From: an uncultured Actinomycetes bacterium
GTDB taxonomy: Bacteria > Actinomycetota > Coriobacteriia > Anaerosomatales > PHET01
DNA: 64,000 bases
Direction: 5' to 3'
NCBI GenBank assembly: GCA_963700665.1
Contig: CAVOYK010000001.1
Coordinates: forward strand, 542,958-606,957
The notes below the pieces were generated by a model. That model was given only the letters and a program-made list of their open reading frames with translations. It searched no databases and was not told where the DNA came from. Positions 30,261-34,090 of this stretch are shown here, in pieces; position 1 is the stretch's first letter, and each line of letters opens with the position of its first letter. The position numbers were made by a program, and so were the translations under genes.

Positions 30261-30320
30261 ACACTCGGCCCTCCACGCCGGGACGGTCCGGCCGCGGAAG
30301 CAAGACGCACCCCCGTTCCA

Positions 30321-30785
30321 TCAGCGGTCGCTCGTGTCCGCCTCATCAGAGGCCATGAGACGCAGCTTGTAGGCGAACAGGCAGCGCTTCGTGAGTACGT
30401 AGGCCCCTGTCTCGCCTGTCTCGAGCGAGAGGGCCTTGCAGATCTCGGGCTTCTCGTCGGGGTGAAGCGAACAGAGTCGATCCTCCTGCAACGCACTGCA
30501 CGGCATGGACACGTGAAGGTGGTTCGCCGAGAACTCGCAGCATCCCACCGGCACCGCTACTTCGTCAGCGCCCACCCGAGCCCCGTGCAGTTCGTAGTAG
30601 CGCTTCGAGTCCTCAGACAGTCGGACGTGGATGCGCACCTCGTGCTCGTCCCGGTCCACCCAACTCTGAGGGTTGAGGCGGAAGTTGAAGCCCCCGCAAC
30701 ACTCGGCCTCGCAGTACTCGAGCCAGCAGATGCAATCGTCGCACGATCGCGCCGCTTCGAGCAGCGCTCGTTCGTCAGGCTTCAT
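30321..30785 (-). CDS. Cys-rich protein, YkgJ/CxxCxxCC-like
   Basis: C..C....C...CC N-terminus and PC..L....C..H...KP..C C-terminus. Confidence 0.7.
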   Translation of the reverse strand: MKPDERALLEAARSCDDCICWLEYCEAECCGGFNFRLNPQSWVDRDEHEVRIHVRLSEDSKRYYELHGARVGADEVAVPVGCCEFSANHLHVSMPCSALQEDRLCSLHPDEKPEICKALSLETGETGAYVLTKRCLFAYKLRLMASDEADTSDR

Positions 30786-30911
30786 GTAGCTTCCTCGTCG
30801 AACGGAACGTGGTGATGCCTCCAGCAATCAACCACAACGATGCGCGAAAGACCCCGCAGATGTGTCAGAGCCCAAGCCTGTTGTGATGCAGGCAGACGCG
30901 TAGGCGGTCCC

Positions 30912-30950
30912 AACGAAAAGGACTCGCGCAATGCACGAGTCCCTTTCGTT
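30912..30950 (-). terminator. Intrinsic terminator after the micro-cytochrome gene
   Basis: Inverted repeat AACGAAAAGGACTCGCG-CAATG-CACGAGTCCCTTTCGTT, with a U-run on the minus strand. Confidence 0.75.
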
Positions 30951-30964
30951 CACCACGTGCGCCG

Positions 30965-31174
30965 CTAGTGGCAACCCACGCAGGCGCTGAATCCCGGATC
31001 CATGTGGCACCGCGCGCAAACGCTGTGGACGTTCGCCTTCATCGCCGCGGGTGCTTTGTGCAGACCCGGTGGGGCTGCGCCATTCCCTTTTGCAGCGCTA
31101 GCGATCGTCGGCAGGATTAGCAGCGCGACCATGAGGATCAGTACTAGAAGTACCAACAGTGCTCTGCGCCTCAT
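30965..31174 (-). CDS. Very small secreted diheme c-type cytochrome (69 aa)
   Basis: Sec signal (MRRR + hydrophobic core + ASA), CARCH and C-terminal CVGCH, SD GGAGGAGG, own terminator. Confidence 0.8.
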   Translation of the reverse strand: MRRRALLVLLVLILMVALLILPTIASAAKGNGAAPPGLHKAPAAMKANVHSVCARCHMDPGFSACVGCH

Positions 31175-31407
31175 ACCAGCCTCCTCCCTCGAACCGAACA
31201 GTACCCCTATGTCATACCCTCATTACTCGTGAATCTGTCGGCCAAGAGCAGTCGTCGGCAAGGCCCCGTCTGTGCGTTGTCAGGCTCGCGATTCCCTCGT
31301 CCGCTTGTTGCCATTCATATGCTCACAACGAGACAGTGTTCCGCGATATCGTTGAGGAGTACTGTAGACTGCCGCCACAGAACGAACCAACGGAGACTGG
31401 ACGTTGT

Positions 31408-31848
31408 ATGCAACAGCTGATCCGGTCATGCGAAGTTCGGGTCCCGCGGGAACCACTCTGGGATTTCCTATCGGACTACAACAACGTCGTGGCCATGGGG
31501 TCCCCCGACGCGTCCGCGCGACTTGCTAGGGGGGATTCACAGCGATGTGACTGCGCCTACGAAGCCGAGATCACCTGGCAGGGGTCAACAAGTCACTTCA
31601 CCGCCTACATGATCGATGCCACTCGGCCGGAGACTCTGACGTGGGATGCCGAAACTGGCATGGGGAGAAGCTGGCTTCGACTGGACTTGGAGTCGGTCAG
31701 CTCGGAAGTCACGTTGGTCACAGTAACGCTGCGCTTCGAAGGCAGTCCTTGGGCGCAGATGCTCGAGGCCTTGGCCTGGGGCTTCCTGAGCGAAACGTTT
31801 GATCGGACGCTCGTCGAGTTGTCGCAGCTGGGTCCGAGCGACACCTGA
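31408..31848 (+). CDS. SRPBCC/START-like ligand-binding protein
   Basis: V..PREPLWDFLSD N-terminus, P..LTW and TLVTVTL strands, C-terminal helix. Confidence 0.7.
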   Translation: MQQLIRSCEVRVPREPLWDFLSDYNNVVAMGSPDASARLARGDSQRCDCAYEAEITWQGSTSHFTAYMIDATRPETLTWDAETGMGRSWLRLDLESVSSEVTLVTVTLRFEGSPWAQMLEALAWGFLSETFDRTLVELSQLGPSDT

Positions 31849-31911
31849 GCTCCCCGGCGTTCTCACACGGTCGGCGAGTGACCGCACTCCTCCCTTGAAC
31901 CGCCTGGCCCC

Positions 31912-32261: not shown

Positions 32262-32330
32262 GAAAGGCCCCGGCGACGTCGCCGAGGCCTCGTCCGTTGC
32301 TGGTGGGCCATCGTGGACGCACTTCGAACT
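32262..32330. repeat. att-like junction 1 (hairpin + TGGTGGGC core + integrase tail)
   Basis: Near-identical to 34011-34079; core shared with the tRNA-Val 3' end; plus strand reads WWAIVDALRT. Confidence 0.8.
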
Positions 32331-32371
32331 GCGGCAGAGAATCGGAAGAGGGAATGCGTGAGACAGGGATG

Positions 32372-33420: not shown

Positions 33421-33557
33421 GTCGGAGATCACGGCACGGTCGCCTACCAGTGGAGAGGCCCCACAGGCTCCTGGAATTGGAGCCCTCTGGGACCTTGAAG
33501 CATTCATGGTGGGCCATCGTGGACGGGCTTCGAACCGCGGTGGGGAGCGACAAGTGA
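33421..33557 (+). pseudogene. Integrase C-terminal tip containing att-like junction 2 (core 33507-33514)
   Basis: YQWRGP..LLELEPSGTLKHSWWAIVDGLRTAVG aligns with YQWKDPFGLLDMEPSGAFRYEWWAIL at 38704-38781. Confidence 0.7.
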
Positions 33558-33577
33558 GCAAGCGTGAGGCCGCGTGG

Positions 33578-34010: not shown

Positions 34011-34079
34011 GAAAGGCCCCGGCGATGTCGCCGAGGCCTCGTCAGTTGCTGGTGGGCCATCGTGGATGGCTTTGTAACC
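34011..34079. repeat. att-like junction 3 (hairpin + TGGTGGGC core + integrase tail)
   Basis: GAAAGGCCCCGGCGATGTCGCCGAGGCCTCGTCAGTTGCTGGTGGGCCATCGTGGA, nearly identical to junction 1. Confidence 0.8.
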
Positions 34080-34090
34080 GCCGCGCTGGT

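Follow-up and report, generated by a model that had tools for sequence, protein, structure and literature searches.

A candidate minimal dihaem cytochrome c encoded by a 69-codon gene of an uncultured Anaerosomatales actinobacterium

Introduction

How little polypeptide is enough for a free-standing protein that carries two haems? The question is raised by a 69-codon gene, hereafter the mini-gene, in the genome of an uncultured bacterium of the order Anaerosomatales (Actinomycetota; Coriobacteriia). The window analysed here is a stretch of 64,000 nucleotides of this genome (assembly GCA_963700665.1, contig CAVOYK010000001.1, positions 542,958 to 606,957), and the mini-gene lies at 30965..31174 on its minus strand. 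Its product is predicted to be exported and bears two closely spaced CXXCH motifs. Among the figures quoted in PMC7096707, the minima of solved cytochromes are 7.1 kDa for a monohaem protein, 4.6 kDa per haem for a dihaem protein (DHC2, there given as the smallest one of known structure) and, for c7, 2.4 kDa per haem, which is called the apparent lower limit among solved structures. With two haems attached, the mini-gene product would have 2.1–2.2 kDa of peptide per haem.

We propose that the mini-gene encodes a minimal exported c-type cytochrome, a dihaem protein with bis-His coordination that likely serves as an electron carrier in the cell envelope, and we give this reading a probability of about 0.62. 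An unusually small, haem-dense exported cytochrome had been suggested in a preliminary description of the window; the conserved motifs, a number of spare histidines that tracks the number of motifs, and the maturation genes of the genome all argue for it.

Haem-Binding Motifs and Spare Histidines

The two putative haem-binding motifs of the 69-amino-acid (aa) protein, C53-A-R-C56-H57 (31004..31018, −) and C65-V-G-C68-H69 (30968..30982, −), are spaced by 7 residues, and the second forms the C-terminus, with H69 as the last residue. Two other histidines are candidate distal ligands: H39 (31058..31060, −), within a block A-P-P-G-L-H-K-A-P-A, and H50 (31025..31027, −), three residues before C53. 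Both motifs and both histidines are conserved in homologues from other genomes and from metagenomes. In alignment A4, C53 is invariant and C56 and H57 depart from invariance only in P0019, a tandem form that is misaligned there; A5 shows no variation at any of the three, and H39 is invariant in A3, A4, and A5. Every family member has at least one CXnCH motif, the last of which is at the C-terminus or at most 5 residues from it, and every member has the histidine block, in full in the closer relatives and as G-[LIV]-H in the distant ones.

Histidines and motifs were tallied in 24 core sequences, some of which are near-identical and hence not independent. Every CXnC in these sequences carries the trailing histidine. 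The one-motif forms (n = 8) have mature parts of 25–34 residues, the two-motif forms (n = 14) of 39–58, and the three-motif forms (n = 2) of 60–61. The number of spare histidines equals the number of motifs in 7 of the 8, 12 of the 14, and both of the 2, respectively; the three exceptions to these 21 matches in 24 have one extra histidine, and no sequence has fewer. H39 is kept in every monohaem form and can be assigned as the distal ligand of haem 1, because it is the only spare histidine when a single motif is present. H50 is kept in the di- and trihaem forms other than P0019 and P0021, although in P0014 and P0018 it is displaced by a few residues, and 7 of the 8 one-motif forms lack both H50 and motif 2. 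Because it comes and goes with motif 2, it is the probable distal ligand of haem 2. P0019 and P0021 consist of tandem copies of the one-motif unit, in which a second G-V-H replaces H50, and in the three-motif forms an extra unit of the type P-H-x-x-C-x-x-C-H is inserted. The preliminary description had named four spare residues as possible axial ligands. Its two histidines, in G-L-H-K (H39) and V-H-S (H50), hold up; its two methionines, in A-M-K (M45) and C-H-M (M58), are not conserved. Since 11 of the 24 members have no methionine at all in the mature part, methionine is not a general ligand in the family.

The spacing between the cysteines is less constrained than the histidine that follows them. 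Among the 16 members with two or three motifs, the last motif is CX2CH in 8, CX4CH in 7, and CX6CH in 1, and the histidine is always retained. A variant in one RNA-library contig, 95% identical to the window (see following), shows how such spacing can arise, as a 6-nt insertion turns C-V-G-C-H into C-V-G-S-G-C-H, i.e., CX2CH into CX4CH. A fixed trailing histidine, an elastic cysteine spacing, and one distal histidine per haem are together compatible with the behaviour of bis-His haem c sites.

One might instead see in these residues a secreted Cys/His-rich peptide that binds metal or forms disulfides, with a role in metal buffering, signalling, or antimicrobial activity. Each H...CxxCH unit does offer two cysteines and two histidines, its assignment to haem is made from sequence, and no cytochrome family model matched above its threshold; yet the histidine after the second cysteine is kept in every motif while the spacing of the cysteines shifts among 2, 4, and 6, which is how haem c sites vary and how metal-knuckle sites do not. 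Adjacent cysteine and histidine residues rarely bind the same ion. Moreover, an exported CXXCH is by itself a substrate in a cell with an active maturation system, all the weak similarities of the family point to cytochromes, and no gene for a modifying enzyme, an immunity protein, or a transporter is adjacent. A metal-binding or disulfide-bonded peptide is thus improbable.

A second type of tiny signal-bearing open reading frame (ORF), of 67–72 aa, occurs in two genomes of the collection (L022 1495-1713, −, in G014; L043, G103:C54:12744-12941, +). Instead of P-P-G-L-H-K it has G-C-G-C-H-K, which contains a C-x-C-H, followed by G-S-[IV]-H-T-G and a C-terminal C-M-[RK]-C-H.

Predicted Signal Peptide and Export

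The N-terminus of the protein consists of three arginines, some 20 hydrophobic residues, and P-T-I-A-S-A, which looks like the pattern of a Sec signal with a signal peptidase I site. The predicted signal peptide covers residues 1–27 (31094..31174, −), as read from the sequence and from the P-x-x-[AG] with which the predicted signal peptides of all members end. Cleavage probably occurs after A25 or A27. A cut after A-S-A (A27) would leave a mature domain of 42 residues, computed at 4.17 kDa (30968..31093, −); a cut after T-I-A (A25) would leave 44 residues and 4.33 kDa, and aligns with the P-A-x-A/G of the relatives. A signal end of the P-A-F-A type also precedes large secreted multihaem cytochromes of related genomes.

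If the hydrophobic segment were not cleaved, it would tether the mini-cytochrome to the membrane by a single pass, with the two haems some 15–40 residues above the surface. Rather than a free carrier, the protein would then be a small accessory subunit through which electrons enter or leave a membrane respiratory complex. A core of about 20 residues can span a membrane, and AlphaFold2 (AF2) models residues 2–28 as a single continuous helix (pLDDT, its per-residue confidence score, 93–95). Tethering would also solve the problem of retention in a cell without an outer membrane, and small cytochromes of Gram-positive bacteria are usually anchored. However, the P-x-x-[AG] at the end of the core has small residues at −3 and −1 and is conserved in all members, and the same motif, as P-A-F-A, precedes the large multihaem cytochromes just mentioned. 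Long hydrophobic cores are typical of Gram-positive signal peptides, and no gene for a partner complex is adjacent to the mini-gene. The conserved cleavage-site motif thus favours cleavage, whereas the long hydrophobic core and the problem of retention favour tethering, which overall we consider unlikely, if a real contender.

Size and Distribution of the Family

A search with the single sequence returned one protein of 74 aa (76% identical), and a profile of three sequences returned six. Run exhaustively with HMMER against 1.84 billion representative proteins (E ≤ 1e-3, no length limit), the profile matched 16 proteins, of which 14 were judged on reading to be family members; the other two, P0017 and P0020, lack CXXCH and were discarded as false matches. 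Metagenome contigs added three loci and a species-genome collection one. Altogether, profile searches identified 24 related small proteins of 48–84 aa, one of them called at 184 aa, apparently from a wrong start. The preliminary description expected that gene callers could miss such an ORF, but homologues of this size are already called in the JGI, ENA, NCBI, and Logan protein sets, one of them under the automatic name "cytochrome c553".

Of the 146 genomes of the order to which the window belongs, 34 matched the profile at E ≤ 1e-3. The 12 best new loci among these were read and the weaker rest left unread. Five are small one-motif ORFs (in G104, G139, G020, G135, and G140) and one is the member of the second type in G103; the remaining six are merely similar signal peptides of larger proteins, mostly multihaem cytochromes of 300–420 aa. 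A core member is present in 7 of the 146 genomes, counting the window's own genome (G000) and G031. In 401 genomes sampled across the phylum, a match at E ≤ 1e-5 was found only in the window's own genome, which contains no paralogue of the mini-gene. Among the genomes searched, the family is restricted to the window's own order.

The gene itself is intact. Its 69 codons, from an ATG to a TAG stop, are delimited by the ORF list, by family conservation, and by the synonymous changes of the 95%-identical variant, and the stop-to-stop open frame around them has only 84 codons. A Shine-Dalgarno sequence, GGAGGAGG, can be read 5 nt before the ATG (31180..31187, −). Starting 15 nt past the stop codon, the fold of the sequence gives a putative terminator hairpin with an 18-bp stem, a 3-nt loop, and a 3′ arm that runs into UUUUCGUU (30912..30950, −). 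For the 86 nt of 30890-30975 (−) the folding energy is −44.9 kcal/mol, a value reached by 0 of 200 shuffled sequences (z = −4.75). A simple consensus scan of 30300-31900 returned no promoter-like and no terminator-like site; it missed the hairpin because the run of T has interruptions and is in part base-paired.

One short contig about 95% identical to the window, of 230 and 234 nt respectively, is present in the metatranscriptome assemblies of each of two studies. The contigs span 30949-31178 and 30963-31178, covering the ORF and almost nothing else. Word depth on the mini-gene is 9.4 and 15.9, against 2.9 in one run and 0 in the other on the neighbouring gene of 168 aa. This is a hint that a close relative may transcribe the mini-gene as a short unit. 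When the eight listed substitutions of the variant are read in the minus frame, five fall on third codon bases and are synonymous and three are conservative (M58V, I20V, and A17S), a pattern that supports the predicted reading frame. Among sequencing runs that contain words of the window, the share of sampled words is at most 0.14 in all, and two DNA contigs from sequencing runs (X1 and X2) do not cover the mini-gene.

These data bear on the possibility that the ORF is the decaying remnant of a multihaem gene, or a frame opened by single-base assembly errors, and without function. The assembly does have obvious frameshifts (a split hemA and a CcmF/NrfE piece of 206 aa), and short CXXCH ORFs that may be fragments occur within the multihaem clusters of the genome. 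Yet the mini-gene is far from those clusters, has its own Shine-Dalgarno sequence and terminator, and shows mostly synonymous substitutions in the 95%-identical variant. At least six further genomes of the order, and several metagenomes, have full-length homologues that agree with it in size and in the positions of start, signal, and stop. The exhaustive search, which had no length limit, found no longer multihaem relative. A word search for longer forms gave a single protein, the 184-aa P0021, which ends in a tandem form of the family, 60 residues long, and whose start looks mis-called. Since there is no longer relative beyond this mis-started one, the mini-gene is not a piece of any longer multihaem gene. 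The preliminary description, which would have been refuted by such an origin or by a lack of homologues with both motifs, stands on both counts. Conservation thus largely refutes a remnant, which appears very improbable, and the 69-aa gene is, judging from this conservation, neither a chance ORF nor a fragment. The structural features first described (the 69-aa ORF, the strong Shine-Dalgarno sequence, the Sec-type signal, the terminator, and two CXXCH 7 residues apart with the second C-terminal) are all present.

Comparison with Known Cytochromes

Among family models, the best score is that of Paired_CXXCH_1 (PF09699), with 12.4 bits for a cut-off of 20.6; TIGR01905 gives 11.6 for 25.2. Paired_CXXCH_1 appears at E ≤ 1 in 3 of 18 members; Cytochrome_C7 (E = 0.01) and Cytochrom_c3_2 (E = 0.019) appear in one member each, below threshold, and the NCBIfam TmcA and c7 models in one member at E = 0.05–0.96. 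In searches of solved structures, the full profile matched a tetrahaem c3-type cytochrome (2a3m, E = 8.4e-5), but this match was driven by the signal peptide and was lost with a profile of the mature part, so that it was rejected as homology. With the mature-only profile, c-type cytochromes make up 24 of the 25 PDB rows at E ≤ 10; MtrC comes first (E = 0.006), through the local context H-x-x-C-x-x-C-H. NapB (PDB 1jni; E = 4 with the full profile, 0.46 with the mature one) matches in the motif only, with no sequence relationship. No PDB relative covers the family. The nearest clusters in the ESM Atlas are all small c3/c7-type cytochromes, with scores of 0.81–0.83, which have the value of a lead. 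Full-text literature searches, judged from the listings, turned up no paper describing such a family.

Structure comparisons were made with haem-free AF2 models. The full-length model had no Foldseek match, and its best VIA-align rows (Z ≤ 2.8) are long helices driven by the signal helix. The mature-only model, a coil of 42 residues, matched nothing by Foldseek or VIA-align. A coil that matches no fold is what one would expect if the haems themselves make up the fold of the peptide.

The family most resembles cytochromes c7 and c3 (PF14522, PF02085, and PF14537). These are small, exported, and very haem-dense carriers of the periplasm or envelope, all their haems are bis-His, and CX4CH is an alternative motif in them. 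In cytochrome c7, a histidine a few residues before the first cysteine of one haem ligates the next haem, and the mini-gene product likewise has a spare histidine a few residues before a CXXCH that may serve the neighbouring haem. The proteins differ in size, as c7 and c3 have 3 haems on 68 residues and 4 on 107, whereas the mini-gene product would have 2 on 42–44, and in the invariant A-P-P-G-L-H-K-A-P-A block, which is its own. We conclude that it would work like a class III (c3/c7-type) cytochrome and that it is not assignable as a member; its family is unnamed.

DHC2 of Geobacter sulfurreducens is also a stand-alone dihaem c-type cytochrome, but the mini-gene product would have about half its peptide per haem, and PDB searches gave no sequence match to DHC2. 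Microperoxidases such as MP-11 and engineered CXXCH tags are short peptides with covalent haem c, comparable to the one-haem relatives with their 25–34 mature residues; artificial microperoxidases were reportedly made through the Escherichia coli Ccm system in 2004. Unlike these proteolytic or engineered peptides, in which the position of the sixth ligand is open, the mini-cytochromes are natural genes with a conserved second histidine, and hence would probably be six-coordinate electron carriers rather than peroxidases.

A final comparison is internal to the genome. One of its cytochromes, with 22 motifs (C9:83910-85577, 555 aa), consists of 36-residue modules with two CXXCH and two spare histidines each, i.e., 18 residues per haem. 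The positions of the histidines relative to the motifs differ from those of the mini-gene product, and homology to the modules is undetectable (at most 7.7 bits per domain with the profile of the family). Because these modules are already as haem-dense, what is unusual in the mini-gene product is that it is free-standing and not the density itself.

Cytochrome Maturation and Multihaem Genes

The genome assembly has 2.45 Mb in 13 contigs and is 77% complete. At C5:184000-201000 (L029) it contains a cytochrome c maturation cluster adjoining hemA and hemC, in which one can identify a CcmE domain (E = 4.5e-35), a CcmA-like ATPase, and three ORFs with a Cytochrom_C_asm domain, of which one is a CcmF/NrfE-like piece and another is CcmC-like. 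For the two Pfam models, CcmE and Cytochrom_C_asm, the matches exceed the gathering scores. The NCBIfam names CcmE, CcmF/NrfE, CcmC, and CcmA are given by E-value, below the curated cut-offs, and the ORFs are fragmented. As hemA is split into two overlapping frames and the CcmF/NrfE piece has only 206 aa, the assembly has frameshift errors. A CcsA-like ORF lies elsewhere, on contig C8, and ResB was not found in this 77%-complete assembly. The maturation genes that the preliminary description proposed to look for are thus found, and judging by its genes the organism has System I and can make c-type cytochromes.

In the part of the literature on cytochrome synthases represented by PMC8112865, a purified bacterial synthase, CcsBA, is described as attaching haem in vitro to CXXCH peptides of as few as 9 residues and as needing just the two thiols and the histidine of CXXCH. 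If exported, the mini-gene product would therefore be a substrate in principle.

The genome abounds in multihaem cytochromes: a mechanical count gives 65 ORFs with at least two CXXCH. They include ORFs with 22 (the maximum), 19, 14, 13, 12, and 11 motifs (the first being the cytochrome on C9, the others on contigs C11, C3, C1, and C4). Outside the multihaem clusters, the mini-gene is the one small CXXCH ORF with a signal.

In four related genomes (L040, L041, L044, and L046, from G027, G075, G058, and G007) there is a conserved secreted multihaem cytochrome of 350–420 aa. Its signal ends in P-A-F-A, the mature part begins with E-G-Y-N, and a run G-G-G-G-G-S-T comes after a CXXCH. Its frame ends in each locus and a further CXXCH-rich frame follows directly.

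Gene Neighbourhood

The mini-gene stands alone. On one side there is a divergent SRPBCC-type gene (31408-31848, +). On the other, beyond the terminator, there is the Cys-rich gene of 168 aa (30321-30827, −), with clustered C-x-x-C and C-C, which has no match among Pfam and NCBIfam families; a search of four genomes of the same genus did not find it either. The GC content falls to 0.59–0.62 across 30–34 kb of the window. Given this dip, the region may be variable. A direct repeat of 60–100 nt occurs in three copies, 76–86% identical, between small genes of the window (32262-32362, 33507-33568, and 34011-34084).

When the 102 ORFs of 10 related loci were scanned with Pfam, no neighbour common to the dihaem forms emerged. 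The neighbours in relatives include a glutamate-synthase-like gene, a META-domain gene and a ferritin-like one, SOUL and fasciclin genes, and a heliorhodopsin gene. A small RF-1-domain gene is found in 5 of the 10 loci, but only beside one-haem forms and at one locus of the second type (L022 in G014). In four of these (L036–L039, from G139, G020, G135, and G140), an RF-1-domain (ArfB-like) gene of 124–148 aa lies a few hundred bases from the one-haem ORF, and in two of the four a DUF2325 gene is also near. We read this proximity as local synteny and not as a functional link.

The heliorhodopsin gene (L035 1556-2599, +; E = 3e-102) adjoins the one-haem ORF in G104, a Coriobacteriia-like genome.

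Discussion

How would such a protein work? The pre-protein would be exported by Sec and lose its signal peptide, after which the maturation system would attach one haem to C53 and C56, with H57 as the proximal ligand, and another to C65 and C68, with H69 as the proximal ligand; the bis-His coordination would be completed by H39 for haem 1 and by H50 for haem 2. The product would be a low-spin dihaem protein of about 5.4 kDa, of which about 4.2 kDa is peptide. As there is almost no protein shell, both haems would be solvent-exposed and close together. Its most likely role would be that of a small, promiscuous electron carrier in the cell envelope, passing electrons among membrane-bound and wall or surface multihaem cytochromes or acting as a released shuttle. 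Since the gene context is uninformative, the best-supported mechanism is a generic one. In the description of cultured Anaerosomatales given by PMC9686372, these Coriobacteriia have 17–18 multihaem cytochromes, and one strain is an obligate Fe(III) reducer.

Several points weigh against a dihaem carrier. The cytochrome assignment is drawn from sequence, and in principle H-x13-C-x2-C-H could bind a metal ion as a Cys2His2 site. The family scores below the cut-off of every Pfam and NCBIfam model, and with the 2a3m match lost when the signal peptide is removed there is no demonstrated homology to solved cytochromes. The AF2 models have a signal helix and a mostly coil mature part (pLDDT 82 and 71). 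The mini-gene was not found in the four genomes of its genus that were searched (60–97% complete), and as neighbours differ among loci, gene context gives no functional clue. RNA-library contigs can contain DNA, and the two found here show no transcript ends and come from a relative rather than from this strain. Finally, the cell presumably has a single membrane, so that a free protein of 5 kDa would be lost unless bound, which weakens the case for a soluble carrier.

A more elaborate solution would be that the proteins are haem "bricks", in which the Pro-rich arm bearing H39 ligates the haem of a neighbouring chain, giving oligomers or filaments that conduct through the wall, or else that they are the smallest diffusible shuttles. 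Were this so, the forms of 25, 42, and 60 residues would self-assemble into stacked-haem oligomers or filaments in the wall of a single-membrane cell, and the one-haem forms, with 25 mature residues, would be the smallest natural cytochromes and a minimal peptide for six-coordinate haem c. Oligomerisation, which the preliminary description had raised, is speculation; a prediction of the homodimer (two copies of residues 28–69 with four haems) scored 0.02 for a mark of 0.42, which speaks neither for it nor against it. We regard this idea as doubtful.

The bis-His dihaem cytochrome is thus the reading that we retain, and the mini-gene product most likely ranks among the smallest c-type cytochromes found in nature, with two haems on about 42 residues. 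It appears to be a known kind of protein, in a rare and unnamed family of one-, two-, and three-haem mini-proteins of related uncultured actinobacteria. If the haems are attached, it would set a new lower size limit, at about 2.1 kDa of peptide per haem in a free-standing protein, and its one-haem relatives of 25 mature residues would lie below the quoted minima. Such proteins would be relevant to the question of the minimal protein for haem c, to the design of maquettes and microperoxidases, and to substrate recognition by cytochrome synthases, and they could provide ready-made substrates for Ccm expression. The series of one-, two-, and three-haem forms with matching numbers of histidines may be a natural example of the growth of multihaem cytochromes by units of "His + CXXCH". 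For the organisms themselves, the family would bear on how electrons cross the Gram-positive envelope in uncultured, iron-reducer-like actinobacteria.

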